Below are positions 14,580-54,044 of a stretch of DNA of 64,000 nt, piece after piece. Origin of the DNA: Thermodesulfobacteriota bacterium (GTDB lineage Bacteria > Desulfobacterota > WTBG01 > CAIYCZ01 > CAIRTM01); assembly GCA_028278025.1 (NCBI GenBank), contig JANQFE010000024.1:11128-75127 (forward strand). Reading direction: 5' to 3'. The position numbers and the translations under genes were made by a program. Below the pieces are notes generated by a model, which was given only the letters and a program-made list of their open reading frames with translations, made no database searches and was not told the DNA's origin. Numbering within the stretch: the stretch's first letter is position 1; every line of letters starts with the position of its first letter.

Positions 14580-14780
14580 TTAATCTATGGTAACATTAAC
14601 CGCTGCAGGACCTTTTTTCCCTTGCTCTATCTCAAAGGAAACCCGGTCGCCTTCATTGAGTGTTTTGAATCCGGTTGATTGGATTGCTGAATAATGCACA
14701 AACACATCCGGACCTTCTGCTTGCTCAATGAATCCGTAGCCCTTGCTGGAATTAAACCATTTCACCGTTCCATTAGCCAT
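14580..14780 (-). CDS. Cold-shock protein, CspA family
   Basis: [15 protein letters not shown]...VFVHYSAI: the RNP1/RNP2 motifs of a cold-shock domain. Confidence 0.9.
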
Positions 14781-27581: not shown

Positions 27582-28832
27582 TTATGATGAAGGCTGTTCT
27601 GTGTGAAGGGGTAACCTGACGGTAAAGACCGAACCCTCATTTTCGCGGCTCTGCAATTCCAGTTCCCCACCGAACCGCTCAACTATCTGTTTTACAGAGG
27701 AAAGCCCTACACCGGTTCCCAGTATACGGTTTTTCTTGGCATTAGAGGCACGATAGAATTCCCGGAAGAGTTTCGGGATTTCGTCTTCGGGGATGCCCAT
27801 CCCTGTATCGGCGACCGTGAACAGTGCCCAGGGATCGCTACGCTGCAGGGTGACGGTAACCGAGCCTTCCTGGGTATATTTTACAGCATTGGATACCAGG
27901 TTTGATATAATCAGGTTCAAGCCTTTGGAGTCAAAACGTACCGGGACAGGCTGCTCCGGAAGCTCTACATTCATTATAAGTTTTTTATTTTCAGCCTGGT
28001 CACGGTACAGGTTGCAAACATTTATAGTCTCATTGGCAACATCAAGCACGCTAACATCTCCCAGAGGGCTGCCCGATTTGACCCTGGACAGTTCCAGGAT
28101 ATCCTTAATCAGATCAAGCAGCTGGCTCATGCGGGAACCGATTTTTGATGTTATAGCAAGGATATCGGGATCACCGGAGCGATCCATCTCAAGCACATCT
28201 ATCATCATCTTGGAGGCTGATACCGGGGACTTAAGCTCATGCACCATGATCTTCATAAATTCTGCCTTTTCCTGATCAAGCCGCTTGAGCGTGGAAATAT
28301 CGTGCAGCATGCGGGCATGGTAAAGCGTGTAGCCCACCAGCCGAGAAACACTCTGCAGCGGGAGAAGGTCTGATTCCTGAAACGGCGCCCCTTTGCTGTT
28401 CATAACCTGCGCAACCCCGATAAGCTCACCTTTAAAAAGAGCCGGTGCGCACATAACATCACGGGTCCGAAAACTGTTGTGCTCATCCCATGTCTTGTCA
28501 AACCGGATCTGCGGGTCAATGCCGCTCAGGTCACCATAGGCATCCTCAACCACAAAAGAACGGCCCGTGAGAGCACAGTACCCGGCCAGGGAGGCACGGC
28601 TGATGGGGATGCGGATACTGCGGGTAACATTACCGATGGTGGCGGCCGATTCCAGCTCCTGGGTTTCCCGGTTAACCAGGTACATAGTGGTGCGTTCTGC
28701 ATTAAGCGCCTGGCACACCACCTCGGCTGCTTCTCTGAGAACTTCAGGCAGCTCATCATCGCTTATCATGCGGTCATACAGGGTAAAAAAACGTTCATTG
28801 ACTATAAGACTGTTTTTTAGCATTTCGGTCAT
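27582..28832 (-). CDS. GAF-domain sensor histidine kinase
   Basis: GAF region (residues ~30-180), HisKA H-box HELKSPVSA, HATPase N/G boxes (LISNLVSNAVKYT...DTGMGIPE...GTGVGLS); GAGGAA ribosome-binding site. Confidence 0.85.
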   Translation of the reverse strand: MTEMLKNSLIVNERFFTLYDRMISDDELPEVLREAAEVVCQALNAERTTMYLVNRETQELESAATIGNVTRSIRIPISRASLAGYCALTGRSFVVEDAYGDLSGIDPQIRFDKTWDEHNSFRTRDVMCAPALFKGELIGVAQVMNSKGAPFQESDLLPLQSVSRLVGYTLYHARMLHDISTLKRLDQEKAEFMKIMVHELKSPVSASKMMIDVLEMDRSGDPDILAITSKIGSRMSQLLDLIKDILELSRVKSGSPLGDVSVLDVANETINVCNLYRDQAENKKLIMNVELPEQPVPVRFDSKGLNLIISNLVSNAVKYTQEGSVTVTLQRSDPWALFTVADTGMGIPEDEIPKLFREFYRASNAKKNRILGTGVGLSSVKQIVERFGGELELQSRENEGSVFTVRLPLHTEQPSS

Positions 28833-28937
28833 GGCCGGAGTTCCTCAGGATGTTTGTATTAAAAAGCACCAAAAAAATTACAAAACTATAACACTATAGA
28901 GTAATTTTTCAAGGAAAAACAGGCTGGAATAAAAGCA

Positions 28938-29160
28938 AACAACAGTTTGGTGAACTGTAAACAGTACTTAGTGATTCGTGAACTGTATTTTGTACTCTAT
29001 TAGTCTTTTGACCTTTTTTTGCCAGTACTCAGTACTTTTCTTTCAGCTTGACAGCCATCAGCTGTGTTTAGTGTTTGGTCTTTAGTCTCAACATAGATAA
29101 TGTAACTTTAGGCATTTTAGCTCGCTTTAATGTACTTTAGGCACTTTCTTTACCTACTCA
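28938..29160. repeat. AT-rich repeat-containing 5' region (family B: aacagtacttagtgattcgt...; actttaggcactttctttacct)
   Basis: A 17-mer, aacagtacttagtgatt, is identical at 37402. A 21-mer, ctttaggcactttctttacct, is identical at 49768. Related gtgattcgtaa motifs occur at 21450 and 47112. Confidence 0.5.
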
Positions 29161-29169
29161 GCACTGTTT

Positions 29170-31113
29170 TTAGTTTATCAAATCACCAATCGCCGGGGCT
29201 TCCCCCTCGCCAAGTTTGCCCTTTTTACCAAGATGCTCGGCTGCATCCGCAAGGCCGATCTCTTCCAGCCGCTTGCGGGTGGGCCGGCCGTCACGGGAAC
29301 AGCCCCGGTAATGATAATACTCATCAAGCATGCCCGGGTGGTGAATCGGGTCTTCATCTCCCCGTCTGGTACCATGTCGGATGTCATCCTTTCTGGTAAT
29401 CCCCAGCAGCGCATTGAAACACTTTTCAATCTGGTAGGCCCGCTCGACTGACTCAAACAGTCCGGCAGGATCTTTACCGGTTGCCGCCTGATAGATTTCT
29501 CCCATTTCATCAAATAGCAGATGCGGGTCACCGAAAACATCGCTGGCCACTACCGGCACAAAACAGAGTCCCAGAGAATCCATCAACATCTTGTAGTTCT
29601 CGCTCCACCAAACAACCCGGCCTTTGGCGACCGGACTTGCATGATCAAGCATTTCCGGTGGAATCCCCTTGCCGAATATTTTCTCAAGCATCTCTTCCAG
29701 ACCGATCATGGCAGCAAATGGATGGCCTTTGAGGTGGTCGGCACCCCGGGTTGCTACTGATGAAGCCAAGCTCATGGCCACGGCCTGTGTACAGTTGTAG
29801 GTAAAGGACATTCCCTTGGTGTGAAACCCGTACGGTTCGGCCTCAGGGCTCAGCTGCGCCAGGATATCCGGCATACTTTCAGCCAGAAGGTTGCCGAAGC
29901 CCTGCCGGGCAGCCACCTGATGCATCACCCGGGCAATCATCTCTGCATCACCCCAGTTCAGGGGCACTCCGCCTGTTTCTTCAGTTGTTAAAATACCGCG
30001 TTGAAAGCACTCCATGGCCATGGCCATTATCCAGCCGAACTGAACACAGTCCATTCCCAGGCGGTTAACCACATCAGACAGATGGACAAGGGCCGGAAAA
30101 TCAAAGACTCCCAGCAGCGGTCCCATGTTTGTATAGTGACCGAACTCCAGTTTGTCGGAAGACTCTCCTGTGTAGGGCCCCTCGGGCACCTCCCATTTCT
30201 GCGTGCAGGCCATAGGACATTTGTAACAGGCTGTTTGTCCGGTCTTGTAGGTTTTTACAATATCATCAATGTCATAGCATTCAAGCTGTTCCGGTGTTAT
30301 TCTGACCTGCTGGTTTTTAATGCGCGTCTGCGAGCTGTTCTGCGCTATGAGCATTAATGACCCGTATTCCTTATGGGCAAACACGGCCTGGCCCTGCCCC
30401 CAGATTTTACGGTACCGTTTTGCCAGCACCTCAAACTGTTCGGTATCGGCCACCGGGACCGTACCCCTTGCTTTTACTATAACGGCCTTCAAGTTCTTGG
30501 AGCCCATAACGCAGCCCATACCTGCTTTACCGTTGCAGCTTATCCTCTTAGTACCGGATATGATATTGGCATACTTAACCAGGTTCTCCCCGGCCGGGCC
30601 GATACGGGCCGATTCACAATCACCGTATTTCTTCCGGATATCCTCACCTGTCTGGTAGGTGTCTCGTCCCCACAAATCGGCTGCATCAACCAGTTCCGGT
30701 TTTTTACCCTTTTCAATAAGCAGTGCAACAGGTTTCGCGGCACGGCCCTGTATGATTATGTGGTCATAGCCTGCCTGCTTAACCCGCGCCGGGAACCATC
30801 CTCCGCCGTTAGAATCGCCGAAGATGCCTGTCAGCGGGCTTTTGGCGGTAACCGTAAAACGGGAAGTACAGGGAAATGCTGTTCCCGTTAAGATACCAAA
30901 TCCAAAGATCAGGGGACTCTGGGGCGAAAGCGGATCTGCCTGCGGGTTACCGGCCATCAGGTCATATAACAGCCTGGCATTGATCCCGGCCCCGCCAATA
31001 TAGTGCTGCATGAGTTTATCAGGGAGGGCTTCCTCCTGTAGGGTTTCCTTTGAAAGGTCTACCTTCAGGAGGTTGCCTCTCCACCCGTATCTCAGAGATG
31101 GGTCGGTTTGCAT
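29170..31113 (-). CDS. aor: Aldehyde:ferredoxin oxidoreductase (tungsten/pterin AOR family)
   Basis: N-terminal YGWRGNLLKVDLS, AOR_N and AFOR_C hallmarks, Cys ligands for the 4Fe-4S cluster; AAGGAG ribosome-binding site. Confidence 0.88.
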   Translation of the reverse strand: MQTDPSLRYGWRGNLLKVDLSKETLQEEALPDKLMQHYIGGAGINARLLYDLMAGNPQADPLSPQSPLIFGFGILTGTAFPCTSRFTVTAKSPLTGIFGDSNGGGWFPARVKQAGYDHIIIQGRAAKPVALLIEKGKKPELVDAADLWGRDTYQTGEDIRKKYGDCESARIGPAGENLVKYANIISGTKRISCNGKAGMGCVMGSKNLKAVIVKARGTVPVADTEQFEVLAKRYRKIWGQGQAVFAHKEYGSLMLIAQNSSQTRIKNQQVRITPEQLECYDIDDIVKTYKTGQTACYKCPMACTQKWEVPEGPYTGESSDKLEFGHYTNMGPLLGVFDFPALVHLSDVVNRLGMDCVQFGWIMAMAMECFQRGILTTEETGGVPLNWGDAEMIARVMHQVAARQGFGNLLAESMPDILAQLSPEAEPYGFHTKGMSFTYNCTQAVAMSLASSVATRGADHLKGHPFAAMIGLEEMLEKIFGKGIPPEMLDHASPVAKGRVVWWSENYKMLMDSLGLCFVPVVASDVFGDPHLLFDEMGEIYQAATGKDPAGLFESVERAYQIEKCFNALLGITRKDDIRHGTRRGDEDPIHHPGMLDEYYHYRGCSRDGRPTRKRLEEIGLADAAEHLGKKGKLGEGEAPAIGDLIN

Positions 31114-38869: not shown

Positions 38870-39298
38870 ATGGCTTATTCATTAGTAAAATTAAAAAAGC
38901 CTTTTGATTTGCTGGCAAACTGGCCGGAATATATTAAAGTAATAAGTAATCATTTTGCCCAGCCTGAGGAAGCCGAGGTTTGGTCTCCAGCTATTGATGT
39001 AAAAGAAAGGGACGGAAAATATGTACTCAGGGCTGATTTGCCGGGTGTCAGAGCAGAGGACATTCAGGTTACCTATAAAAACGGCTACCTGACCATCAAG
39101 GGCAAAAGACGCAGGGACGAACGCAATGACTCTGACTTTAATCACATCAATGAACGATATTACGGCTCCTTTGAAAGAGTGCTGCAATTCCCTGGGGGAG
39201 TTAAAGAATCAGAAATTCAAAAAAAATACCAAAACGGCATTTTGGAACTTACCATTCCAATACCGCAGGAAGATTTCAAAGGAAATAAAGCTGTCTGA
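38870..39298 (+). CDS. Hsp20/alpha-crystallin small heat-shock protein
   Basis: Alpha-crystallin domain (DVKERDGKYVLRADLPGV...GILELTIP); AAGGAGG ribosome-binding site. Confidence 0.9.
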   Translation: MAYSLVKLKKPFDLLANWPEYIKVISNHFAQPEEAEVWSPAIDVKERDGKYVLRADLPGVRAEDIQVTYKNGYLTIKGKRRRDERNDSDFNHINERYYGSFERVLQFPGGVKESEIQKKYQNGILELTIPIPQEDFKGNKAV

Positions 39299-39796: not shown

Positions 39797-40081
39797 TTAA
39801 ATACCTTTTACCAGTTCATCAAACCTCTCAACCTCTACCGCAGGGGCCGTGGTAAAGCAGATTCCGGTCAGCCTGGTCAGGGCAACCGAGGCCTGCATGG
39901 CCTGTTCCAGGTCAGGCATATCCAGGATAAGAATCACGTCATGCACCCCCAGCATCGCATACATTGCCTTGAGCTCACCCCGGAGCTCTCTCACCAGACT
40001 GGCAACTGCTTCTGTACGCTCGGCACTGACTGCATTCAGTGATGCAACGGAATATTTGCCAAACATAAAAAAAGTAGCCAT
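39797..40081 (-). CDS. GYD-domain protein
   Basis: MATFFMFGKYS...DVILILDMPD...FTTAPAVEVERFDE matches the GYD family pattern; GAGGTG ribosome-binding site 7 nt upstream. Confidence 0.55.
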   Translation of the reverse strand: MATFFMFGKYSVASLNAVSAERTEAVASLVRELRGELKAMYAMLGVHDVILILDMPDLEQAMQASVALTRLTGICFTTAPAVEVERFDELVKGI

Positions 40082-40131
40082 AATAATCACCTCTGTGTTT
40101 TGTAAATTGTTATTAGCAATGAGAGTCATTA

Positions 40132-40252: not shown

Positions 40253-42553
40253 TCAACCAAACAGCTTGCGAAAAAGACCGGTTGCCGGACCGGGCCAGCG
40301 CCGTACCACCATAACCGGACCGGGGCAGGAGCGGGCAACTCTTTCAGGGATATCACCTGCCACCATCTTTACAAACGGCCGGCCGGCTGCCGCACCCACA
40401 ACTACCAGCTCAAACTCCTGCGAGGCTTTTGCAATGCCTGCGGCAATTGATCCTGATTTGACTATATAACGGCCGATCTTTACCTGTGGATCAAGCGTTT
40501 TCAATGACTTACTGATCCTTTCCAAGGCAGCCTCCTGTCCGGCCCGGTCTGCCTTTTCAGGCACGACCACGCATGCATCAACGCTGGCACCGTAGTGCCC
40601 GGCAATATCGCGGGCAAAGGCAGCTCCCAGAGTGGCATGCGGGCCGCCCGAGGTTGCCAGCAGAATACGGCTGATGGTATCTGCTGAGTCTGCCTTGATA
40701 ACGGCAACATCGCAGGGACAGTGCCGCAGCATATAGTCGGTAATCTCCCCAAAAATATGATGGTGCTGCTGAGGAAAACCCTTCCAGCCCATTACGAGCA
40801 GGTTACAGTGGTGATCTTGAACCGAATCAAGCATGGCATGACTGAGTGAGTGTGCCACCCTCAAATCGCCCCGCAGGTCCGCTCCAAGCTCCAGGGCGCA
40901 GGCCTGGGCCTCCCTGATCAGGGGACGGCGTTGATCAACCAAAACAACCCCCTCGTGTATAGGAAGCTGTTCAGGCACCACGGCCACTGTGAGGGCCACA
41001 ATCTCACCGTTGCGGGGAATGCTGAGGGCCGCTGCAATACTGATCAGGTAGCGTACCGTAGCCGGGTTGTGCAAGGGCACAAGTACACGGAAGCGCTCCC
41101 GCTGCTCCGGTGGTGTGGTTTTTTCCAGCCGCAGCACCAGCGGCCTACGGGCCTTAATCTTATGCTGAAACAGCGCAATATACAAAAAGAGCCCCACAGC
41201 AGTCCAGCCCCCCACTATAGTCCAGGGAATCCTGTCAAAGCGATACTGAAAGACAGCCAGCAGCAGATTAATAACGAAGCCCAGCAGGGGTAAAACCGGA
41301 TACAGGGGCATTGTGTAACGGCGTTTCAGAGCAGGTTGTTTACGGCGCAGCGCCACTACAGCCAAGTTGACCATCGCAAAAACCAGCAGAAACATGACGC
41401 TGGCTGCTGAGCCCAACAGGCTGATCGGCAAGCAAACCGCTACAATAAGAAACAGTACCCCAGTTATCAGGATGGCAATATGCGGGGTGCGCAGGCGTGC
41501 ATGGATTGCTGCAAGCCTGGGCGGCAGCCATTCGTTGCGAGCCATGGAAAACGCCACCCGGGAGGATGCCATGATCGTGGCATTAAGCGCACTCATGGTG
41601 GAGAGCAGACCGCCCATCACGATCAAAAACGCACCGGCCGCAGGCATCATCTTGGCTGCCACCCTGATTATGCCGGTTTCCTGATATTTGCCTAAAAACT
41701 CCCAGGAAGGCATGTCTCCGGGGTGAACCGCGCCGAGGGAGACAAAAATAACGCACAGGTATATCAGCACAGTTACGCCCACCGACACAAAAATAGCTCG
41801 GGGAATATTTTTTTCAGGCTCTTTTATCTCCTCGGCCACCGTGGCAATCAGATCATAGCCTTCAAAGGCAATAAAGGTAAGGCCCATGGCAATAAAAACG
41901 CTGCCGATTCCCTGCGGAAAAAACGGTTTAAACTCGGCTTTGGCTGCCGGCACATCACCGATAATTGCCTCAATACCAAAGATAATAAACACGACCAGTA
42001 CGGCAACCTTGGCGACCACAATCACATTTTCGGTCTTACCCGTAATCATGGCGCCCCGCACATTCAGGGACACAAAGGTAACGCCTCCCAGGATAATCAT
42101 TGCCACCACCGCAGCCTGCTCCCCGGCAAGGCCGACCAGCAGGCCGTGGGTACCGGGAAGGTAACAGCCCAAAAACTCCATCAGGTAGGCCCCGAATCCG
42201 GCTGCATACAAGGCGCAGGCCACCGTGTAGGCAAACCAGAGCCACCATCCGGCCACAAATGCAAAAACATCGGGGAATGCATATTTAACATAGGAATACC
42301 CCCCGCCGGACTCGGGAATTGAAGAGGCCAGCTCGGCATAGGCAAACGCCGTGATCAGGGTTATCAGTCCGTTCAGGGCGAACGCCAGCAGGGAAGCCGG
42401 TCCTGATACTCCGGCCGCAATACCCGTGAGCACAAAAATGCCGGCACCGATCATGGCGCCTATGCCGATCATCGTGGCGTCAAAAAAACCCAGGCTGCGG
42501 TCAAAGGTAACCTGCAGTTCTTTTCTGTCAGCCTTGTTGTTTTTTAGAGTCAT
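40253..42553 (-). CDS. APC-family amino-acid permease fused to C-terminal tandem universal stress protein (UspA) domains
   Basis: 12-TM APC core (GIGAMIGAGIFVLTG...); ~300-aa C-terminus with two Usp-like alpha/beta domains (VLVPLHNP..., ILLATSGGPHA...VVVGAAAG). Confidence 0.85.
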   Translation of the reverse strand: MTLKNNKADRKELQVTFDRSLGFFDATMIGIGAMIGAGIFVLTGIAAGVSGPASLLAFALNGLITLITAFAYAELASSIPESGGGYSYVKYAFPDVFAFVAGWWLWFAYTVACALYAAGFGAYLMEFLGCYLPGTHGLLVGLAGEQAAVVAMIILGGVTFVSLNVRGAMITGKTENVIVVAKVAVLVVFIIFGIEAIIGDVPAAKAEFKPFFPQGIGSVFIAMGLTFIAFEGYDLIATVAEEIKEPEKNIPRAIFVSVGVTVLIYLCVIFVSLGAVHPGDMPSWEFLGKYQETGIIRVAAKMMPAAGAFLIVMGGLLSTMSALNATIMASSRVAFSMARNEWLPPRLAAIHARLRTPHIAILITGVLFLIVAVCLPISLLGSAASVMFLLVFAMVNLAVVALRRKQPALKRRYTMPLYPVLPLLGFVINLLLAVFQYRFDRIPWTIVGGWTAVGLFLYIALFQHKIKARRPLVLRLEKTTPPEQRERFRVLVPLHNPATVRYLISIAAALSIPRNGEIVALTVAVVPEQLPIHEGVVLVDQRRPLIREAQACALELGADLRGDLRVAHSLSHAMLDSVQDHHCNLLVMGWKGFPQQHHHIFGEITDYMLRHCPCDVAVIKADSADTISRILLATSGGPHATLGAAFARDIAGHYGASVDACVVVPEKADRAGQEAALERISKSLKTLDPQVKIGRYIVKSGSIAAGIAKASQEFELVVVGAAAGRPFVKMVAGDIPERVARSCPGPVMVVRRWPGPATGLFRKLFG

Positions 42554-43323
42554 ATAGTAAATGTAGGGCTGGTCTCAGTACTGTGGGATCCCTTCCCAGC
42601 TACCCCGCTGACGCCATACCATGTTTCACCATGATGTATAGCGTCACACGTTACTGTGTCAGTTCATCGGTAAGGGTCTTTGGTTTTGAGCAGCAAGGGG
42701 TGTATCCCGGGTGCCGTCACTCTCCCGGTCCCACAACACAAACAGGGTCCTGATGAGGAAGGTGTCCAGTTTACACAGCCTGTTGTTGTATTACCGGCAG
42801 GAACCGTCACCTGTTTGGTACCTACAGAGACATTCCAATACCCAGTTCGGCGGCACCGAAGTTAAGCGACACTGTTTGGGAACTGCCGGTAGAATTCTGC
42901 GTTTCATAGCCCAGCTGTGTGCTTTGACCGGAGACCGCGGGTTCCGGATCAACTGAGATATCCTCATCAATGTATTCTGATATAACATATCCCTGTGCCG
43001 GACCGGCTGCCGTCAACAAAAAAAAGAGCGGCAGCCATTGTTACATGAAAAAGTGCTCTGCTTGTTTCCAGGGGCATCCCCTCCCCCTGTGTTCTTTATT
43101 TATAAGTGGTAATGTATACATTATGAAAACATTTTGTGCCTGAAAAGCGCTTTTTATACTAAAAAACAGCTTCCCCCTGATGCATTGTTTGGGCTGCTTC
43201 TCAATGCCGGCTAATAGTAGCAAAAAGGAATTTGGTTTGGCAAGAAAAAGAAATCAGAGGCAGATTATAGAAAAAAAGCCTTGCCTGAAAGCGAGGCTTT
43301 GAAAAAATCTCTGGAAAAGGATG

Positions 43324-43400
43324 TATTTTTTTTCGTTAAACTTAATTTGCTTTGCCTTTACTCATACCTTCCTTACTCCCTGGGTTGTATTAATAATACT
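43324..43400 (-). pseudogene. Duplicated 5' fragment of a csp gene (leader plus first ~6 codons, frameshifted)
   Basis: ~75 bp is ~90% identical to the 5' UTR and start of csp at 46775 (tttttttcgttaaac...tttgcctttactcata.cttc.ttactcc.t.ggttgt.ttaataatact); the coding remnant reads MSKGKAN*. Confidence 0.5.
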
Positions 43401-43431
43401 TTTATATCTCTGTGCCGAATCAAATCCGGTG

Positions 43432-43701
43432 CTACCGTCTTTTGTGCTTACTGTTCTGCGACCTGGCTTCGGCTACGATAAGCTTATTACCATCAAGTTC
43501 CACCCCTTTGCAAATTTTAACAACCTCCCGGGCCTCTTCGGCAGTGGCCATCTCAACAAAAGCAAAACCCTTCGAGCGGCCGGTCTCCTTGTCCCTGATA
43601 ATCTTTGCCGATATACAGTTCCCCAGATCACCAAAATTATCCAGGAGGTCCTCCTCAGTGGTTTCTTCGGTCAGATTGCCCACATATAGTCTATTAGTCA
43701 T
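43432..43701 (-). CDS. RRM-type RNA-binding protein
   Basis: RNP2 LYVGNL, RNP1 KGFAFVEM. Confidence 0.85.
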   Translation of the reverse strand: MTNRLYVGNLTEETTEEDLLDNFGDLGNCISAKIIRDKETGRSKGFAFVEMATAEEAREVVKICKGVELDGNKLIVAEARSQNSKHKRR

Positions 43702-43763
43702 ATCCCTTCCCCCATACTGTAAAAATTACCGGTTTGCATGGCGCATAGACCGGCGTATACTAT

Positions 43764-45716
43764 TCACACCAGGCTTGCTGCCAGCCCCTCAACATTTATG
43801 AACACCTCAAAATGACTCCGTGCATAGGCAATCACATCTGCCATATCTGTGCGCAGGGACTCAATACTGATGAAGGTAATTCGTTTTTGATATCCTCGCA
43901 ACTGCTTCAAAAACACAAGCAGCGCTGTGCGCTCCGTGGTGGTTACCCCGCTGAAATTAAGCGCCAGATTGCCCTTCTGCTCTTTTAAATACGTTTCGAT
44001 TCTGTTTTTCAGCTTCATGGCCGTCACCCTGTTAAAAACACCTTTCAGATCAACAATAAGGGGATGATGGGCCTTGTGCTGAGGTCTGTGCCGAATGCTC
44101 AAGATACCATTACCGCTAAGTTCTGCCGGAGCCAGCCGTGTGGCGGCCATGCGGTATTCAGTACGCTGGAGCCGTGCCTGGGGATAGGAACCATGGGCAA
44201 GCTTTACTTTTTCTGCAAACGCAAACAGTGGGACAAGTGTTGATAAAAACTTGTTTTTTACTCCGCCGGAACCTATTTCCTTCAAGATGGCCCGCTGAAC
44301 CTGTCTGATCTGCTGGGCAACCTCGTGCGTAGGGGCATAGCGCACTGCTGTGGGAAACAGGGGCAGAGCTTCAAGGCAGCCTGTGCGGTACTGATCAGCC
44401 CGCATCTGCAGCAGGGGGTCAGAAGAATCTCTGAACTTCAGGTATCCATTCAACTGGGTTGCCACATATCGTATTACCGAAGGCCCCAGCCGACGATATT
44501 CAGCCTCATAAACATCCAGAATCAGCTGCTCCATTTCCTGCTTGCTGATATGGGGATGGTCAAACACCAGATGAAAGCCGTCCCAATGCTTGTAGGGAAC
44601 ATCAGGCAGCAGCCTGCCTTCCCGCTTGAGCCGCTCAAACAGAGGTGTGCTGCAGGCTGCGCTCAGGATAAGAAACTGGCTCAGGCTCGGTCTGAGGGAT
44701 ATGAGATATTCAAAATCTTCCCACACTGATTCAACCGTATGGAAGTCATGCCCTATGATAAGTGAAGCCAGGGTATTGATACCGTGGGCCTGGAGCCGGT
44801 CAAAAATCTTTTTCAGATCGCGGCCCTGCAATTTGGCATAGGTTGCCCGGCTTGATTCCACTCCGATCCAGAGCGACTCAACACCCATGCTGACCAGATC
44901 CTCGGGGTCCCATTGCTCTACGGAGCATGCGCTGGCAAAACAGGAAATTTTTATCGGCTCCTGTCTATCCTCCCGCACACACGCCAAAAACTCACGGGCG
45001 CGCTTTTTCTGCATCAGAAAATCTTCTTCAATGATGCCGATGGGTAGATTTGGATTGTCCAGGGTCCTGTGGACCCTTCTGATTTCACGGTGCAAATCCC
45101 GGCCGGTTTCTAAAAGAGGAATATGGCGCTGCTTATGGAAGTGCGATGTTGCACAGAATTCACAGCCGTGGGGACAGCCGAGCCCTCCCAGCACAACGGC
45201 TCCCTTCATAATCGGGATGCCGGCAATTTTACCTCTGGTGGGATAGACAACATGCTGTGCGGGTTTATCAATGTGGTCCTCTCCCAAAAGCCGCCGCATA
45301 AAGCCGACTCCCTCTTCCCGGCAGATATAATCACCATACTGGTCGCATTCCGGCAGCATGGTTCCGTATCCGCCCAGAATTATACGAGCCTCCGGGGCCA
45401 CCCTGCGTACCATGCGACACATTTTTTTCATCTTGGCAAACGTCGCAATCACGAAGCTGATCCCGACATAATCATAGCCTTTGGCAAGCTCACGTTTAAA
45501 CTGTTGCATGGTGGGGTACTGCAGCACTGTTGTCGGAGTAGCTATATTATTGGCGATATATTCCAGGCCGTAGGAGATATAGGACACCCGGGGGCTGAAA
45601 ATTCCCTGGGCCCGTGTTACCTGGGCATGGAACAGTTCAGGCATGACATGCTCGGTGCAATCATCAGTATTAGCCCCGAATGGTCCGCATACTGTCGTCA
45701 GAAGTATTTTTTTCAT
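43764..45716 (-). CDS. B12-binding radical SAM protein with a C-terminal STAS (anti-sigma-antagonist-like) domain
   Basis: N-terminal cobalamin-binding Rossmann domain, CPHGCEFC radical SAM motif; last ~110 aa (LIVDLKGVF...LALNFSGVTTTERTALLVFLKQL...FEVFINVEGL) matches the SpoIIAA/STAS pattern. Confidence 0.75.
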   Translation of the reverse strand: MKKILLTTVCGPFGANTDDCTEHVMPELFHAQVTRAQGIFSPRVSYISYGLEYIANNIATPTTVLQYPTMQQFKRELAKGYDYVGISFVIATFAKMKKMCRMVRRVAPEARIILGGYGTMLPECDQYGDYICREEGVGFMRRLLGEDHIDKPAQHVVYPTRGKIAGIPIMKGAVVLGGLGCPHGCEFCATSHFHKQRHIPLLETGRDLHREIRRVHRTLDNPNLPIGIIEEDFLMQKKRAREFLACVREDRQEPIKISCFASACSVEQWDPEDLVSMGVESLWIGVESSRATYAKLQGRDLKKIFDRLQAHGINTLASLIIGHDFHTVESVWEDFEYLISLRPSLSQFLILSAACSTPLFERLKREGRLLPDVPYKHWDGFHLVFDHPHISKQEMEQLILDVYEAEYRRLGPSVIRYVATQLNGYLKFRDSSDPLLQMRADQYRTGCLEALPLFPTAVRYAPTHEVAQQIRQVQRAILKEIGSGGVKNKFLSTLVPLFAFAEKVKLAHGSYPQARLQRTEYRMAATRLAPAELSGNGILSIRHRPQHKAHHPLIVDLKGVFNRVTAMKLKNRIETYLKEQKGNLALNFSGVTTTERTALLVFLKQLRGYQKRITFISIESLRTDMADVIAYARSHFEVFINVEGLAASLV

Positions 45717-46053
45717 TATGCTTTTCCTTGTGCGCGAGAATCTGGAGCACAGGCATGCAGAACTGCAACAGGGACTGTTCAGCCCGGGGGGCTGTATCCG
45801 CGCGTCGGGGGCAGATCACCCCGGCCGCTGCGGCAATCACAGCTGCCCTGCTAGGCCTGTCTGTTAAGCGTGATGCGTATAGCACTTTTGGGGAAGGGTA
45901 AAAAGAGACCAGAAAAAAAGGGCGCTCAGAACCATTGGGCCAGGGATGTTTGTCATTCTCCTGCTCCGTTAGCCTGTAGAAAAAACAAAAAAGACAAAGA
46001 AGCCATTCCCTGAAAACAAAGTGTATACCAATAATGTTTGTAGCCGGCCCGGC

Positions 46054-46359
46054 TTAATACCGGCCGCGTCCTCTGGGGCCCCCACCCGATCTGCGGGAAG
46101 AGTCCCGGTCCCGTCTGGGTCTGGCTTCATTTACGGTGAGCTTTCGGCTGCCCAGCTCAGTACCATTTAATTTTTTGATAGCTTCCTGGGCATCCTCCTC
46201 ACGGGCCATTTCCACAAAGCCGAAACCTTTCGACTGTCCTGAGAATTTATCCGTGATAATGTTTACCGAGATACACTCTCCAATTTCTTCAAAGCTTTTC
46301 TTTAATGTCTCTTCGGTTACCTCATAGGACAGGTTCCCGACATACAGATTTTTGGCCAT
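46054..46359 (-). CDS. RRM-type RNA-binding protein with an RG-rich tail
   Basis: LYVGNLS / KGFGFVEM; C-terminal RRDRDSSRRSGGGPRGRGRY. Confidence 0.85.
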   Translation of the reverse strand: MAKNLYVGNLSYEVTEETLKKSFEEIGECISVNIITDKFSGQSKGFGFVEMAREEDAQEAIKKLNGTELGSRKLTVNEARPRRDRDSSRRSGGGPRGRGRY

Positions 46360-46574
46360 TGATGCTCCTTTATGCGTGTGTTGTTATCCTGTTGCTCCCG
46401 TACAAGGGAGCCGGCAGATTACCGATCGGATTGTCGCTCATTACCGCACCGATTAAGACAATCTCCTCGTCATCACCCCAATGCATACCGCCGTTTGAAA
46501 GCCCCGGTCGGTTGTGCCTTGTTAGGCTGCATGATTTTTTGCAGCATTTGCGGTTTGTTACTGCAATGTGTTGT

Positions 46575-46775
46575 TTATAAGGCCCTGACTTTTAATGCCT
46601 GCAGACCCTTGTTACCCTCGGTAACTTCAAAGGTTACCTCATCACCGTCTGACAGGCTTTTGAATCCCTGTCCTTCTATAGCGCTGTAGTGTACAAACAC
46701 ATCGCCATGCTCTTCAGATTCAATAAAGCCAAATCCTTTTTTTTCGTTAAACCATTTTACTTTGCCTTTACTCAT
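46575..46775 (-). CDS. Cold-shock protein, CspA family
   Basis: [16 protein letters not shown]...VFVHYSAI. Confidence 0.9.
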
Positions 46776-47340
46776 AACTTCTTACTCCTTAGGTTGTGTT
46801 AATAATACTGTAACATTCATACTGTTTTCCTTATTATATAAAAATGTTTGGTAAGTGCCGCCTGATCGTATAGTATTTCTTCCAAAAAAAAAACCCGCGG
46901 GATTATCAAAATCCCGTGGGCTCTAATATATTAAAACTTCCTGGATTTTAGACTAATACGGCACGATGCTTCTTTTTACTTAAGATAACATATACCTAAA
47001 AAAAAGACGTGTGTCAATGCATAATTTCCCCTGCCGAAGAAAAAGTCTTACTGTTTGTGAAAAACACTCCTGCAAAACAAAGCCGCCCTGCTAACCACTG
47101 GAAACCACTTTGTTGTTTGGTGATTCGTAATTAGAGAATCGTTAATAGATCGCTTTTCTTGGGGAGCATTCTGACTTTGTCAGAATTCGAGGAGCGCTGC
47201 GCTTCAGGTATGAGGGTTGTATCCTCAAGGCCAGAGGCCGATCTTTAAATCCCGCTTCAGCAGTATGATCCTCAAACTCAACCAGCAATCCCGCCTGTGG
47301 CGGGACCTATGCTCCGCTCCGGCCAGCAACAAATAAAACC

Positions 47341-47394
47341 AGTTCCGCTTCACACTTTACGCTTCTGGTTTGACGTTATTAATCCAGTATCCAG
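47341..47394. repeat. ~54-bp direct repeat copy 1 (family C)
   Basis: gttccgcttcacactttacgcttctggtttgacgttattaatccagtatccag is ~95% identical to 49657..49711. Confidence 0.65.
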
Positions 47395-47426
47395 TTTTCT
47401 CAATACTCGTTACTCGGTACTATTTT

Positions 47427-48755
47427 TTATTCCACCCCCCACACATGTACCACGGCTGCGTTTTCGTTGGTATGACCTCCAAAGCCCTTCTCTATCATAA
47501 AAACCCGCTGGCCTGCACTGTCTACGGCTATGCCGCCCACTTCCCCGCAGGTATGCCCGGCAGCATCGCCCAGGTGGAATTCCGCGGGTCTCCAGATTTC
47601 ATACGGCACAACACCCCAGGCATCACGGCTGCCCAGGGCAACCTCGCCCAGCTCATCTACATCATAGAAGATCACCTGGCGCTCGAAAGGATCACAGTGA
47701 TACCCCTGACTATCCTGACAGGCATCAGAACTCGAGGGAGCACCATAGCTGTTATCACCCAGTCCCTTAATACCCAGAAGCACTATAGACCTTTTGTCGC
47801 CGCTTTCTATAAAAGCGCCGCCTTCCCATTTATCGCACATGGTAAAATCAGGAAAGTCACACTGGGAGGGGTCTCCCACGTTGGGCCCGGCGCACTCCGG
47901 GTAGTATATGTTGTACCACAGCATCGGAACTGCATCCAAATCACCACTGGGCTCCTCGCTGTCCCAGGGACGAAAAGCAAACAGCGTGGGCCCCTGCGAG
48001 CCGTTAAATGCCCCGCGGGTTTTGCCCGTGACAAGTGTTCGGCCCCCGAGATACATATTAGCATAGGATTGGGGTACGCTGAAAAGGTAGTCTCCGCATT
48101 TGTTGCCGTGATAGGGCAACTCTTCAGGCCCCACATGATAGAGTCCGCGCGCATGTGATCCATCCATGTCGGAAATCCAGACAGTCCTGTGGCTGTCATC
48201 AACCACACCATACCAGTAATCCAGCGTTCCATAGAGTTTATCGCTTGTCTGGGAGCCCTGCCGCGGCACAACAGCTATACCGCTTACAACGGCAAACTCC
48301 GCATCAAAGTTTTCATTCTGCCTGCTGTACTGCTCCACCAGGCCCCCGTCAAAATTGGTCATTGCGGTAAGCACGGCAGCTTCAGGCAGATCCTGCCAGT
48401 TGGACGCGGTTGATGGTTGCGGAATTGAGAGTTCGGCAAACTCCGGTTCGTTCAGATCAAATCCGGTCACCAGCAGGGAACCAGAGCCCCCGTTGCCGGT
48501 TTCGTAGTAGGCCATACCTCGGGATCCCCAGTTGCACTCCTCCGGCAGACGAAAAGCTCCCTGATAGGTAAAATCTGTTGACTGGAGCCGCTCTGAAGGA
48601 GTTACCGTAACAGTTGTGGTGGTTGTTGTTGACAGGTCGCTGGTAGTGGTTGTCGTGGTTTCATTATCGGGACCGCCGCCCCAATCACAACCGGGGGAAA
48701 AAACAAACATACATACTGCGGGAATAATTGCAATAATTGTGGCCTTTGTTTTCAT
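47427..48755 (-). CDS. Secreted lipoprotein with a poly-Thr linker, function unknown
   Basis: Signal peptide plus lipobox (FSPGC), TTTTTTSDLSTTTTTT linker; GGAGG ribosome-binding site. Confidence 0.6.
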   Translation of the reverse strand: MKTKATIIAIIPAVCMFVFSPGCDWGGGPDNETTTTTTSDLSTTTTTTVTVTPSERLQSTDFTYQGAFRLPEECNWGSRGMAYYETGNGGSGSLLVTGFDLNEPEFAELSIPQPSTASNWQDLPEAAVLTAMTNFDGGLVEQYSRQNENFDAEFAVVSGIAVVPRQGSQTSDKLYGTLDYWYGVVDDSHRTVWISDMDGSHARGLYHVGPEELPYHGNKCGDYLFSVPQSYANMYLGGRTLVTGKTRGAFNGSQGPTLFAFRPWDSEEPSGDLDAVPMLWYNIYYPECAGPNVGDPSQCDFPDFTMCDKWEGGAFIESGDKRSIVLLGIKGLGDNSYGAPSSSDACQDSQGYHCDPFERQVIFYDVDELGEVALGSRDAWGVVPYEIWRPAEFHLGDAAGHTCGEVGGIAVDSAGQRVFMIEKGFGGHTNENAAVVHVWGVE

Positions 48756-50315: not shown

Positions 50316-53300
50316 ATGCATAAAAAACAAACAAAATGTTTTTTTCAGAAAGTTGTTTTTTTAGCGTTTTTTACTGTTTTTTTGATCTTTATGCTGCTTC
50401 CGGCTTCTTTCAGCTTTGCCCGGCAAACCATTAAAAAAAGCCGGGACATAACCGCACCGGCTGCCCAGCGTGACCCTACGACAACTACCACGACCAGGGA
50501 ATTAACCACTACCACGATCGGCCGTGAGACTACCACCACAACAACAACCAGGGAATTAAGCACCACGACGTCTGTACCCGATACTACTACCACTATTGTA
50601 TTTGATACCTCCACTACGACCTCGGTAGCAACACTGCCGACCACAACAACAACTGCGTCCCGTGATACCTCTACTACCACAACTGCGGTCCTTGATACCA
50701 CCACGACAACTACCGCGGCCGTGGCAGCGGCCACAGATTGCCAGTCAGCCAAAGATAACGCTCAGATCATCTGCTGCACGGATGCTGTATCCGCTCCTGT
50801 TCCTGACAACCTCGACTATGTATCACTGACAAACTGCGAAACCGGTGAAGTTGAGTCGTTTGCCTGTGTCCATGATCCCGCTACCGGATCAGAGCTGGCT
50901 ACCGAGACCACCGTGACTGAAGGGGCCGCTGAGGATTATTCCAGCCCTGAATGTCAGGCAGCCCTTGATGATGTTGCAGACTACTGTGCTGAGCAAGATG
51001 AAAACTGGCATGAGGATCATACCTATACCCTTGAATGCGAATCCGTAAAAACCGCGGTTTACCCGCTCTGTGATGACCTGCAGATGATCAGCGAAATCGG
51101 TTGTCCCGAATGGCCGGGCCTGGAAGTACTGCAACGTATTTTTGAAGGCACCACCGAAGGCCCGCCGATCCAGATACCGATTCCCACGCCTGAGGAAACG
51201 CCGTTTGAAGAACTGGAGAGCGACGCTGCCGCAAAACCCGGCGCCGACATGGATCAGTTTACCCAGCTTATGGATAATGAGACCGCTTTGAAAGAAAAGG
51301 AAGACCAGAAGCTCAGGATCGAAATACCGGGTAATTTCATACGCTATATGATGGCACGGACGTTCTTTAAAAAAGCCCTTGAAATGATGGATGGCCAGGA
51401 TGGTTTTGAATGCGAGCCGGATGAGCTGGAGTGCTCCATCGATCCCCTTGAGCTTGCTGATTTATCTCCCTTTTTAACGATTGATAAAGAGAACTTTAAG
51501 CTGTCAGCCAAAAAAGCCTCCTATGGCTACCGATTATACGACCTGTGGGCCGGTGAGGAGGATTCTGTATACATACAGTGGTCCGGGGAAATCAGGGTTG
51601 AAACCAGCTCTAAAATGAAGCTTGACTTGAAGGATAATGCTACCCTGGCGGTTATACCGCTGCATGAACCCGACGCGGCAAACGGATACTCAACCGATGT
51701 TGAGGTCTCTGAGCGCTGGCTTGACCGGGCACAGTTGGTACTCGAGCTGCCTGATGACCGGTGCAGTCCGCTCCAGGGTAACCAATATAACGATAAGTAC
51801 ATTACCTGGACGACACCCTTTTCATGCAACTGCACGGGAAATGACGCCGGTAAGACCAACTATTGTGTTGTGGACCCGTATGAACGGGAGGAATCAGAAA
51901 TTAACATAGATGATCTTGAAAGCGCGGGTGCTGATCTGGTTGAAGTCGTCTGCACCGATCCGCTCACAACGGCTGAAGGTGAAAACCTGTCCGAATATCT
52001 TTCTAACCAGGGATATTCCGATGAGTTTGTTGCCCAGGTCATCACCACGCTGCGGGATTTTGGCTGTGCCGGCCGGACCGTTACCCGTGTAGCTACCGAG
52101 GAGGGTTTGATAACCTCGGCCATCGGTCTTGAGTTTACCAATATTATGGACCTCGGCGCACTGCAGGCCACCATGGAGCCCGGTATTTTCACGATCAAAT
52201 TTCCGTTTTTCGGTACTGCCATTCAGTATCTCGAAAAAACCTGGTGGGGCTGGCTGTTCAGCTGGATTATCGAGATCATTCAAAAACTGCTTGAAGCTAT
52301 TATCAGTGCCAAGGGAACACTTCTCTTAAATGTCCTTGTCAATACGGCAAGTGCTTCCCTGGGCGACCAGGAAATGCTGCTCCACGGCGTGATCAGCCAC
52401 AGCCTGGGCACAGATGACAGTGATCCTGATATAAGCATCGGGCTGCGGCGGCTGGCAACGGATGCGCCTGAAGTGAAGATCACCAATTTCGGTTTTTCCT
52501 GGGAAACGCCCTCATGTGACAGTATGGACGGCCCCGAGGACCTCCTGAACCTGATTACCTGTCCATTTGAAATCCTGGTCAATCTGCTGAAATATGTGCT
52601 GTCCCCCATCACCAATCTGCTGCTCACCCTGGCAGATCATATGTTTGATCTGATGAATTTTATTAATGATGAAATTTCAGGTGTCGTTATTAATGAAGTG
52701 GCTAAAATAGAAGACAGTAACCAGATAGCCGCGCTCATCAAAGGCACGGTTGTCTCAACCAGCACCAATCCCTATTATCTGGCCGAAGAATACGCTGATC
52801 AGGAACAGCTGGGCCAGCTGCTGGGAGTTGTGACGGATTCCCTGCCCGTTCTGCAGGATCTGGCCAAAACCATTCCTCCGCCGCTGGTGCAGCTTTGTCT
52901 GCTGGCTGGAAACAGCGACACTGCCGGCGGCGTTGCCTGCCAGATTGTCAAGATTTTTGCCGGCGGCTTTGATGTCGACTCCGGCAGCAAGGGGGTCAAT
53001 GAGGTCCGGGTCGATATACCGCGCCTGGGCGCCAAAACACATTACCGCAGCATGGCTGATTTTGAAGAACTGTCAAGTATGCTCAATGACGACCTGCCGC
53101 CGGTACGGTTCTGTCTGCCGGGAGACAATCCTCCCGGGTCCGAGGTATATGATCAGGATGACCTGCTGATCCTGACCGATTTTAATGAAATTGATATCTC
53201 CGATGAGGAAAGCGCCAAACCGCATGACTGGCGAACCCAGTCGGCCCTGTTCCTGGATCTCAAGGCCCACGGACAGCTCTCCATCCCGGGCCTGGCATCA

Positions 53301-54044
53301 CTGCTGATAAAACCCACCGAGCGTACAAACCTGCTCATTAACGAGGTTTTTGTCTGCAAGGATAATGAGTACTGCAACCCCGCTAAAAATTATATCAGAG
53401 ACCGCGCAGAGCTCGCGCTTTGCTCCATGGCTTCAGACATCTGGTACTCCCTGGCCTTTAGCGAAGAGGAGCAGCAATACTATAACCTGGCCGCGGACAT
53501 GGAGCCCGAGCTTATCGCCACGCTGATGGTATTTGCTGAACCAGTGGAAGGCGATCTGCCGGATGATTTCAGTGAAGATCTGGAAGCGGTGGCCGAGTGG
53601 CTCTCGCAATGCCAGGAAGCGTTGAGTGAGCTGGAATGGGCGCTGCCGGGACCGTCAATCTGCGAGGACCTGGCCGGAAGCAGTGCGAAAACTTTAAGTG
53701 CGCTCTACCAATTCCGTGATACCGTGCTGAGCACAGATGAAAAAGGTATATTCTACCGCACGGCCTATTACCGCCTGCGGACCGACCTGGTGGCTCTTTT
53801 TGACGCCCACCCGCATCTGTTAAACCGCACGGCAACATTCATTAACCGGGTAGCGCCCCGGCTGCAGACTGCCGGTCCGCAAGAGATCATTGTCCTGTCA
53901 GCCGGTGATCTTGCTGAATGCCGCTCACTGCTACATGATATGATTAAAGTGTCAAACGGGCCGCTGAAGCAGACCCTTACCCGGCTGCGAACCGATCTGG
54001 AAACGGGCACCCTGCTGCCTGCTCTGGGCATCCGCGTTGAGTAA
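50316..54044 (+). CDS. Very large (1242 aa) secreted or surface protein with N-terminal signal-anchor, a ~100-aa Thr-rich repeat region and a large Cys-containing domain of unknown function
   Basis: Long intact ORF with a GAAAGG ribosome-binding site and signal/TM segment (VVFLAFFTVFLIFMLL); TTTTTRELTTTTIGRETTTTTTTRELSTTT repeats; no recognisable catalytic motif. Confidence 0.7.
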   Translation: MHKKQTKCFFQKVVFLAFFTVFLIFMLLPASFSFARQTIKKSRDITAPAAQRDPTTTTTTRELTTTTIGRETTTTTTTRELSTTTSVPDTTTTIVFDTSTTTSVATLPTTTTTASRDTSTTTTAVLDTTTTTTAAVAAATDCQSAKDNAQIICCTDAVSAPVPDNLDYVSLTNCETGEVESFACVHDPATGSELATETTVTEGAAEDYSSPECQAALDDVADYCAEQDENWHEDHTYTLECESVKTAVYPLCDDLQMISEIGCPEWPGLEVLQRIFEGTTEGPPIQIPIPTPEETPFEELESDAAAKPGADMDQFTQLMDNETALKEKEDQKLRIEIPGNFIRYMMARTFFKKALEMMDGQDGFECEPDELECSIDPLELADLSPFLTIDKENFKLSAKKASYGYRLYDLWAGEEDSVYIQWSGEIRVETSSKMKLDLKDNATLAVIPLHEPDAANGYSTDVEVSERWLDRAQLVLELPDDRCSPLQGNQYNDKYITWTTPFSCNCTGNDAGKTNYCVVDPYEREESEINIDDLESAGADLVEVVCTDPLTTAEGENLSEYLSNQGYSDEFVAQVITTLRDFGCAGRTVTRVATEEGLITSAIGLEFTNIMDLGALQATMEPGIFTIKFPFFGTAIQYLEKTWWGWLFSWIIEIIQKLLEAIISAKGTLLLNVLVNTASASLGDQEMLLHGVISHSLGTDDSDPDISIGLRRLATDAPEVKITNFGFSWETPSCDSMDGPEDLLNLITCPFEILVNLLKYVLSPITNLLLTLADHMFDLMNFINDEISGVVINEVAKIEDSNQIAALIKGTVVSTSTNPYYLAEEYADQEQLGQLLGVVTDSLPVLQDLAKTIPPPLVQLCLLAGNSDTAGGVACQIVKIFAGGFDVDSGSKGVNEVRVDIPRLGAKTHYRSMADFEELSSMLNDDLPPVRFCLPGDNPPGSEVYDQDDLLILTDFNEIDISDEESAKPHDWRTQSALFLDLKAHGQLSIPGLASLLIKPTERTNLLINEVFVCKDNEYCNPAKNYIRDRAELALCSMASDIWYSLAFSEEEQQYYNLAADMEPELIATLMVFAEPVEGDLPDDFSEDLEAVAEWLSQCQEALSELEWALPGPSICEDLAGSSAKTLSALYQFRDTVLSTDEKGIFYRTAYYRLRTDLVALFDAHPHLLNRTATFINRVAPRLQTAGPQEIIVLSAGDLAECRSLLHDMIKVSNGPLKQTLTRLRTDLETGTLLPALGIRVE

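Follow-up and report, generated by a model that had tools for sequence, protein, structure and literature searches.

A conserved radical SAM–STAS fusion protein encoded among cold-shock-type genes, and its possible role in membrane-lipid modification

The stretch of DNA analysed here, 64,000 nucleotides (nt) from a Thermodesulfobacteriota bacterium (contig JANQFE010000024.1 of assembly GCA_028278025.1; hereafter the window), encodes a protein of 650 amino acids (aa) in which a radical S-adenosylmethionine (SAM) enzyme, abbreviated rSAM, is fused to a C-terminal STAS domain. We found that the fusion is a conserved family and not an assembly or open-reading-frame (ORF) artefact, that rSAM-STAS is a real, conserved and uncharacterised enzyme, and that in many anaerobic bacteria of sediments its gene is linked to genes for RNA chaperones and helicases of the cold-acclimation type or to a gene resembling that of an ether-lipid synthase. 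We tentatively propose, at a probability of roughly 40%, that it is a cold-regulated radical SAM enzyme that acts on the tails of membrane lipids, with the STAS domain as a docking or regulatory module. An initial annotation, made from the sequence alone, had not recognised the fusion as a described architecture, and the literature that we searched likewise yielded no description of the family and no paper on an rSAM-STAS architecture. A 2026 review of lipid-modifying radical SAM enzymes, covering work up to 2025, lists nothing like this family (PMC13459092). The database labels are generic, namely ‘B12-binding domain-containing radical SAM protein’ and ‘anti-anti-sigma regulatory factor’. A third label, ‘haloalkane dehalogenase’, is carried in JGI/IMG by P0003, P0006, P0024, P0033 and other members; it has no domain or fold support and therefore looks like a propagated mis-annotation.

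The AlphaFold model of the protein, built with 88 homologues (predicted local distance difference test, pLDDT, 90.3; predicted template-modelling score, pTM, 0.77), has four parts, which together with the cluster-binding motif map to the window as follows:

45267-45716, minus strand: N-terminal Rossmann, B12-binding-like domain, about residues 1-150 (model)
44547-45266, minus strand: radical SAM core, about residues 151-390 (model; PF04055 over residues 179-338)
45153-45176, minus strand: CxxxCxxC motif C181-P-H-G-C185-E-F-C188, invariant in 88 aligned homologues
44187-44546, minus strand: helical domain, about residues 391-510 (model), common to the STAS-less clade described below, for which tblastn coverage extends to about residue 523
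43767-44126, minus strand: C-terminal STAS domain, about residues 531-650 (model), with R596 at the position of SpoIIAA Ser58

Membership in the radical SAM superfamily is supported by the CxxxCxxC motif, which binds the [4Fe-4S] cluster in such enzymes, by a partial TIM-barrel fold and by the Pfam match to PF04055, which at 34.9 bits exceeded the gathering score of 29.5. The match to the B12-binding family PF02310 (residues 79-141) fell just under its gathering score, with 29.5 against 32.1 bits. The N-terminal fold matches those of TsrM, CysS, TokK and OxsB as well as corrinoid-binding domains, and this domain is also present in AprD4, the best match. Since AprD4 shares this architecture yet is not known to use cobalamin, we term the protein class-B-like and do not assume that it depends on cobalamin. 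The N-terminal domain carries a highly conserved insert, CGPFG...DDCT.H.MPELFHAQVTRAQGIFS, in which C10 and C20 are invariant within the fusion clade; the sole universally conserved cysteine outside CxxxCxxC is C132. Five helices (residues 391-508) make up the helical domain of the model.

When the whole core was compared with known structures by Foldseek, MgmA, AprD4, CysS, TsrM and TokK were retrieved at E values of 1e-13 to 1e-9, followed by RimO and MiaB. Sequence identity to these enzymes is low: 14% to AprD4, a radical SAM 1,2-diol dehydratase that acts on aminoglycosides (PDB 6fd2), and 13-16% to the class B methylases TsrM (6wte), CysS (9n1b), MgmA (9ccb) and TokK (7kdx). Neither AprD4 nor any of these methylases bears a STAS domain. 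The NCBIfam models gave remote matches alone, all 10-20-fold under their cutoffs; BchE, PhpK, HpnJ and ApyD scored 25-34 bits against cutoffs of 480-750 (33.6 against 481 for BchE). We detected no TRAM, KH, S1 or other RNA-binding domain in the protein with Pfam or in the model, and no RiPP (ribosomally synthesised and post-translationally modified peptide) recognition element or SPASM domain with Pfam. The protein does not qualify as a methylthiotransferase, as it lacks TRAM, matched no NCBIfam methylthiotransferase model and ends in STAS; the UPF0004 domain of those enzymes has three cluster-binding cysteines, whereas C132 is alone in being universally conserved here outside CxxxCxxC. The computed isoelectric point (pI) averages 8.7 over the family. 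As modelled, the 650-aa protein is a soluble, basic, class-B-like radical SAM enzyme composed of a Rossmann/B12-like domain, a SAM barrel, a helical domain and STAS.

Because the Pfam matches on this protein by itself are sub-threshold, the STAS assignment rests on predicted structure. PF01740 scored 15.8 bits on the whole protein and 19.5 bits on the last 128 aa against a gathering score of 22.6, and PF13466 (STAS_2) had no match on the 650-aa protein. Among the C-termini of 21 orthologues, PF01740 was matched in 10 and PF13466 in 4 at E ≤ 0.01, and many orthologues have precomputed PF13466 matches. When the orthologue C-termini were combined into a profile, the three best-scoring PDB sequences were all SpoIIAA (lowest E 1.3e-4), and the NCBIfam anti-sigma-factor antagonist model gave a remote, sub-cutoff match on the tail. 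When the last 140 residues were modelled on their own (pLDDT 87), the structures retrieved were almost all STAS domains, including SpoIIAA, TM1442, RsfB, RsbV, RsbS, the stressosome protein RsbR and SLC26 STAS, with target-normalised template-modelling scores of 0.64-0.73. The C-terminal unit in the full-length model has the order β-α-β-α-β-α-β-α, in keeping with the STAS fold, a four- to five-stranded β-sheet flanked by helices. As judged from the orthologue Pfam matches, the SpoIIAA profile matches and the modelled fold, the C-terminal domain is a real STAS domain. The initial annotation had called it a clear one. Fold, orthologue and profile evidence uphold that call, while the Pfam scores on this particular sequence fall short of it; the rest of the architecture then described, a B12-binding radical SAM enzyme with a STAS domain, is borne out by the model and Pfam, with the B12-binding score just under threshold.

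Like SpoIIAA and RsbV, the domain has the STAS fold, the β-α-β order and the conserved start ‘L.G.LD...A..L’. Unlike them, it is strongly basic, with a computed pI of 10.3 for residues 511-650, and forms part of a larger enzyme through fusion. A further difference concerns the phospho-acceptor: in the hidden Markov model (HMM) alignment, the phosphorylatable Ser58 of SpoIIAA, at the start of helix 2 (DSSG motif), aligns with R596, and this column holds R, Q, H, N or P in 21 of 21 orthologues and Ser or Thr in none. We also searched the window and about 160 loci for an RsbW/SpoIIAB-like kinase or a stand-alone SpoIIAA-like ORF and detected none in this crude phmmer search, which used approximate SpoIIAB, RsbW and SpoIIAA queries of limited sensitivity, did not query PP2C directly and left the rest of the genome outside its reach. 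Neighbour clustering revealed no conserved kinase or PP2C neighbour. With no Ser or Thr at the phospho-site and no RsbW-type kinase found nearby, classical partner switching is unlikely. In two Fibrobacterota loci, a gene for a receiver-only response regulator lies directly upstream of rSAM-STAS (L008, 7519-8004; L018, 7586-7978), and the one in L008 overlaps the rSAM start.

The fusion is conserved, which the initial annotation had left to be checked. A large protein database contains about 70 full-length fusion clusters at 60-80% identity, from metagenome-assembled genomes (MAGs) of Thermodesulfobacteriota, Chitinivibrionales/Chitinispirillaceae and Fibrobacterota. A second tier consists of proteins of 520-570 aa that are 42-47% identical over the first 80% or so of the query. 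The GTDB species genomes hold 25 fusion loci and 55 loci with the shorter relative, whose hosts are Acidobacteriota, Myxococcota, Desulfobacterales, Nitrospirota, Planctomycetota and one member of the Thermoplasmatales; a further 41 fusion loci and 39 shorter-relative loci came from JGI metagenomes. All fusion-clade hosts in the genome scan are MAGs or single-cell genomes. The shorter proteins form a STAS-less sister clade with members in Solibacteraceae, Bryobacteraceae and Desulfobacterales; by tblastn it is 36-43% identical across roughly the first 525 residues, and it shares many invariant residues.

No hidden STAS domain was found in the short relatives with the family's own STAS HMM, even at E 10, and Pfam detected nothing in the 75-115-aa tails of the longer STAS-less forms. 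In several of these long forms (L064, L037, L071, L075, L078, L061, L039, L047, L056), the tail carries ‘RLQGGF.......L.EDL...’ after ‘...QQPGLLR(I/T)EHR’. This tail resembles the first strand and helix of STAS, ‘VDL.G.F....A..L’, and could be the remnant of a STAS domain present in an ancestor; the fusion family could either have acquired the domain or have retained it. A search of 1.84 billion representative sequences with the STAS profile returned 69 matches in all. They comprise the tight family, which collapses to one full-length sequence at 50% identity clustering, together with C-terminal fragments of its members and further short sequences; two full-length fusions that are more divergent, at 37% and 33% identity; and, for the rest, ordinary STAS proteins of 100-125 aa.

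In the window, the rSAM-STAS gene lies within a run of genes on one strand:

46575-46775, minus strand: CspA-like gene, 66 aa, first gene of the run (PF00313, E 3.1e-28)
46054-46359, minus strand: RNA-recognition-motif (RRM) gene, 101 aa, RGG-rich at its tail and separated by 337 nt from the rSAM-STAS gene, which it precedes (PF00076, E 1.5e-25)
43764-45716, minus strand: rSAM-STAS gene, 650 aa, with an ATG start and the Shine-Dalgarno-like AAGGAAAAG upstream
43432-43701, minus strand: RRM gene, 89 aa, 62 nt downstream of the rSAM-STAS gene (PF00076, E 6.6e-21)
43327-43407, minus strand: truncated copy of the csp leader and first codons (MSKGKAN*), about 80% identical to 46737-46816, at the 3' end of the same-strand run
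43271-43300, minus strand: terminator-like hairpin AAAGCCT...AGGCTTT followed by a T-run, found by eye; its loop is long and the scan did not call it

The intergenic gaps along the run are 215, 337 and 62 nt, and a terminator scan called no terminator-like site on the minus strand within these three gaps; the sigma-70 promoter and terminator scan gave counts no better than on shuffled sequence and was used solely for this absence of calls. An independent assembly of the same organism gave the same gene calls. The initial annotation had described two RRM genes and a cspA-like gene flanking rSAM-STAS on the same strand, with which both coordinates and Pfam agree.

To examine whether this neighbourhood is conserved, we searched all loci with the cold-shock-domain (CSD) and RRM proteins of the window and then with a DEAD-box helicase and a large downstream protein derived from clustering. 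Of 66 fusion loci, 36 had a CSD, RRM or DEAD-box gene no more than 2.1 kb away on the same strand, compared with 0 of 94 STAS-less loci (Fisher p 6.6e-18). When the count was restricted to loci whose two flanks each extended for 1.5 kb or more, a cold-shock-type neighbour was present at 18 of 31 fusion loci and 0 of 53 STAS-less loci. The large downstream gene, which we call Ger-like for reasons given below, was present at 9 of the same 31 fusion loci (0/94 for the STAS-less loci overall), and 24 of the 31 had a cold-shock-type or Ger-like gene. After single-linkage clustering at 85% identity, 16 of 25 fusion clusters showed one context or the other.

The cold-shock-type neighbour was always on the same strand as the fusion gene, and its position varied. 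We observed at least five gene orders: CSD-DEAD-rSAM, which is that of the largest sub-clade and in most of its loci places the DEAD-box helicase gene 1-157 nt upstream; rSAM-CSD; RRM-rSAM; rSAM-RRM; and rSAM-RRM-CSD-DEAD, the order at L083, the closest relative of the window (80% identity). The retention of linkage across rearranged gene orders suggests selection on linkage or co-expression and not simple inheritance. Conservation of the RRM and csp neighbourhood is thus stronger than had been guessed from the window, and it extends to DEAD-box helicases. Since the classical RNA chaperones of cold acclimation are of just these three kinds (CSD proteins, RRM proteins and DEAD-box helicases), the enzyme would belong to a cold or stress regulon and is probably cold-regulated. 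We looked for a leader motif common to the rSAM, csp, RRM and DEAD genes, and blastn-short across the loci matched coding-sequence overlaps only.

A second context points to lipids. In 12 fusion loci, a protein of about 1450 aa is encoded immediately downstream, often with a 4-nt stop/start overlap. It contains two BcrAD_BadFG domains, DUF2229 and a weak HGD-D segment; in the 1450-aa protein of L006, PF01869 is matched twice (3.6e-63), PF09989 once (3e-39) and PF06050 weakly (E 0.0057, C-terminal 499 aa). Two BcrAD_BadFG domains, DUF2229 and small HGD-D segments constitute the BBD(H) architecture reported for the ether-lipid synthases Ger and PlsA (PMC13159169), whose genes encode about 1400-1600 aa (PMC12838417). 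PlsA is the anaerobic plasmalogen synthase and Ger the glycerol ester reductase (PMC13159169, PMC12838417). Judging from the stop/start overlaps, the fusion gene appears to be translationally coupled to the Ger/PlsA-like gene in this alternative context. The two contexts meet at L008/L092 and L019, where the rSAM gene is flanked by both the large gene and an RRM gene; at L018 a csp gene lies 7.4 kb upstream.

The sister clade provides a further connection. CMAS, DUF1365, FAD amine-oxidase, DUF1295 or DUF2177 genes were found at 31 of 94 STAS-less loci, with at least two such genes at 19, and at L032 the CMAS gene overlaps the rSAM stop codon; MFS_2 and DUF1499 genes accompany these lipid clusters. 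None of the CMAS, DUF1365, FAD amine-oxidase, DUF1295 or DUF2177 genes was found at any fusion locus. UfaM (CMAS-type), UfaD and UfaO (DUF1365) modify the acyl chains of phospholipids (PMC7380195). A divergent fusion, P0139 (37% identity; L164, 1-7980), follows arnC/arnA/arnD/arnT-like genes for lipid A aminoarabinose on the same strand and is itself followed by genes for outer-membrane lipoproteins (Slp, LpoB, DUF1425). These three independent contexts, a Ger-like partner, acyl clusters around the sister clade and arn genes, suggest envelope lipids, with which the cold-shock context is compatible.

Two conserved proteins without Pfam matches were also seen beside the STAS-less rSAM gene in CMAS-type clusters: c10, of about 270 aa (L033, L046, L050, L066), and c16, of about 110 aa (L031, L033, L065, L074). 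Both are possible dedicated partners. In one sub-clade, BioF-, BioH- and BioC-like genes for an aminotransferase, an α/β-hydrolase and a methyltransferase lie downstream (L015, 9999-12865; L022, 12960-15792); they probably belong to an unrelated biotin operon.

In the mechanism that we propose, the fusion gene would be co-expressed with the cold-shock genes. SAM would be cleaved reductively at the cluster held by C181, C185 and C188, and the resulting 5'-deoxyadenosyl radical would abstract a hydrogen atom from an unactivated C-H bond in the hydrocarbon tail of a membrane lipid. If the N-terminal domain binds B12, methyl transfer from methylcobalamin could follow and produce methyl-branching; if the domain is AprD4-like and works without B12, the outcome could be desaturation, rearrangement or some other change. 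Strict anaerobes would thereby gain an O2-independent means of re-fluidising existing membranes in the cold. The STAS domain would dock a carrier or partner protein or an anionic membrane surface, or would gate the enzyme, with no phospho-switch involved; docking is suggested by the missing Ser/Thr at the phospho-site, by the failure to find a kinase nearby and by the pI of 10.3. A more specific version, in which an O2-independent, cold-induced tail modifier of anaerobic sediment bacteria (by methyl-branching or radical desaturation) works with a Ger/PlsA-type enzyme while STAS recruits the lipid carrier or partner, seems to us rather doubtful.

Known systems offer partial parallels. Class-B-type radical SAM enzymes act on lipids (hopanoids and glycerol dialkyl glycerol tetraethers, GDGTs), on antibiotics and on proteins. 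Among the lipid enzymes, HpnJ/HpnP/HpnR, Tes/Mss, GrsA/B and Gmm, some of them B12-dependent, would share with the present protein a radical attack on inert hydrocarbon tails, and they share co-location with other lipid genes. The present protein differs from them in that it belongs to none of their families by sequence and in its STAS domain and cold-shock context, which are absent from the known enzymes. One of the closest known systems for the STAS domain is that of the SLC26 protein YchM/DauA, bound to acyl carrier protein (PDB 3ny7). The cold regulons of other bacteria combine RNA chaperones or helicases with modifiers of lipid tails: B. subtilis Des, cyanobacterial DesA/B/D (in the rbp/crhR/des system) and E. 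coli LpxP are examples, sharing their cold regulons with Csp or Rbp proteins and with DEAD-box helicases. With these enzymes, whose folds are unrelated, the likeness is one of function alone. Moreover, the cold-induced desaturases depend on O2, and the enzyme described here would operate in strict anaerobes.

Several observations weigh against a lipid-directed, cold-regulated enzyme. The substrate is assigned through guilt by association, and cold induction through the neighbours alone; moreover, those neighbours are all RNA-binding and would fit an RNA target equally well. As many as 30 of 66 fusion loci have no cold-shock-type neighbour and 21 have neither context, many of these being short contigs. 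The window itself has no adjacent lipid gene within its 64 kb. The protein is in no known lipid rSAM family, the HpnJ model scoring 25.3 bits against a cutoff of 577.6, and it has no membrane segment. Cobalamin binding by the N-terminal domain is putative. The protein of about 1450 aa is Ger/PlsA-like by domain architecture, a label that does not imply orthology, and it could instead act as a low-potential reductase, driven by ATP, for the cluster of the rSAM enzyme.

The first alternative, a form of which the initial annotation had raised, is modification of RNA or of the ribosome, in which an rRNA, a tRNA or a component of a ribonucleoprotein would be methylated or otherwise altered during cold acclimation alongside Csp, RRM and DEAD-box proteins. 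The linked genes at the 36 of 66 loci encode RNA-binding proteins, the DEAD-box gene is closely spaced in the largest sub-clade, the protein and especially its STAS domain are basic, and the structural matches to RimO and MiaB are respectable ones. However, the protein has no recognised RNA-binding domain and ends in STAS, its closest folds (AprD4, TsrM, CysS, MgmA) do not act on RNA, and an RNA target leaves unexplained both the coupled Ger/PlsA-like gene and the lipid operons around the sister clade. We know of no class-B-type radical SAM enzyme that acts on RNA, and consider this reading unlikely on balance, if one to be taken seriously. We give little credence to a protein target, such as Csp, an RRM protein or another cold-shock or ribosomal protein modified in the manner of RimO, Mmp10 or MgmA. 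Such a target would accord with MgmA and RimO being among the best structural matches, with small ORFs beside the rSAM gene, which typify peptide-modifying systems, and with a weak NCBIfam match to the RiPP enzyme ApyD (E 2e-8, far under cutoff). But the neighbour differs by lineage (CSD, RRM, DEAD-box or Ger-like), so that no single substrate candidate is conserved, and neither a RiPP recognition element nor a SPASM domain was detected.

Still less credence attaches to partner switching, which the initial annotation had raised together with the suggestion of a cognate RsbW/SpoIIAB kinase. Here, STAS would serve as an output or input of the anti-anti-sigma type, and its phosphorylation by such a kinase would couple the activity or the cluster redox state of the rSAM enzyme to a sigma factor. 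The STAS domain is closest in sequence to SpoIIAA, some members are labelled ‘anti-anti-sigma regulatory factor’ in IMG, and two loci have a single-domain response-regulator gene just upstream. Against this stand the phospho-acceptor position, at which none of the 21 aligned orthologues has Ser or Thr, and the failure of the crude kinase search and the neighbour clustering to produce a kinase, a stand-alone STAS or a PP2C partner in the window and the loci covered; neither the switch nor its kinase was borne out. Least credible of all is the absence of any functional link, with a housekeeping radical SAM enzyme lying by chance near abundant small RNA-chaperone genes. The 30 loci without such a neighbour would be expected on this account, and csp and RRM genes are multicopy in each genome, the window itself having a second csp at 14592-14780. 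Nevertheless, the contrast of 36/66 with 0/94 holds against a sister clade sampled partly from the same phyla, and the linkage is always on the same strand and survives several rearrangements.

The STAS domain described here would be, among those that could be found, the first on a radical SAM enzyme, and the loss of the phospho-switch residue makes it a clean case for the study of non-phosphorylated STAS domains on enzymes. Whatever the substrate, the conserved csp-DEAD-rSAM and RRM-rSAM modules would constitute a new component of bacterial cold acclimation, found in lineages without a cultured model. Little is understood of how strict anaerobes, which cannot use O2-dependent desaturases, adapt ready-made membranes to cold, and a cold-linked radical SAM enzyme is a concrete candidate; if the lipid reading is true, the enzyme would be the anaerobic counterpart of the cold-induced desaturases. 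The position of the STAS-less clade inside UfaM/UfaD/UfaO-type operons points to an unrecognised radical step in the modification of bacterial fatty-acyl chains. Should the reaction prove to be an alkyl-chain methylation, both the fusion family and the STAS-less proteins would be candidates for the temperature-dependent extra methylation behind the palaeothermometers based on branched GDGTs (brGDGTs), for which the published pathway proposals consulted name no methylase (PMC13023045). Because all fusion hosts found are MAGs or single-cell genomes, experiments will need heterologous expression or enrichments.

Some further features of the window concern the run and its surroundings. The duplicate of the csp leader at 43327-43407 may be what is left of a second csp gene, or else a regulatory leader that has been kept. 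Upstream of cspA, a terminator-like hairpin with a long T-run (46898-46916, minus strand) lies inside the 200 nt or so between a promoter-like sequence and the cspA start, and a TTGACA-like box is found upstream of it, near 47010-47016. The hairpin, which has no Rfam match, could be a leader attenuator of a kind that Csp proteins are known to antiterminate. Known RNA elements such as a csp thermosensor or a riboswitch had no Rfam match, either in an E-value scan of 42500-47600 or in a gathering-threshold scan of the whole window, and neither a second rSAM-STAS paralogue nor a Ger-like gene was found in the window. Its second cold-shock-domain gene (14592-14780, minus strand) is 59% identical to that at 46575-46775.

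General-stress genes adjoin the run, encoding Hsp20 (38870-39298, plus strand), a GYD-domain protein (39797-40129, minus strand) and an amino-acid permease-Usp fusion of 766 aa (40253-42553, minus strand). Two large predicted secreted proteins, of 442 aa (47427-48755, minus strand) and 1242 aa (50316-54044, plus strand), both have long Thr-rich (TTTTT) stretches near the N-terminus, and the 442-aa protein has no family in the precomputed Pfam record. Finally, a gene for an aldehyde:ferredoxin oxidoreductase (AFOR_N/AFOR_C, 647 aa) adjoins that for a GAF-HisKA-HATPase sensor kinase at 27582-31113 on the minus strand, and its presence is consistent with a strictly anaerobic host.

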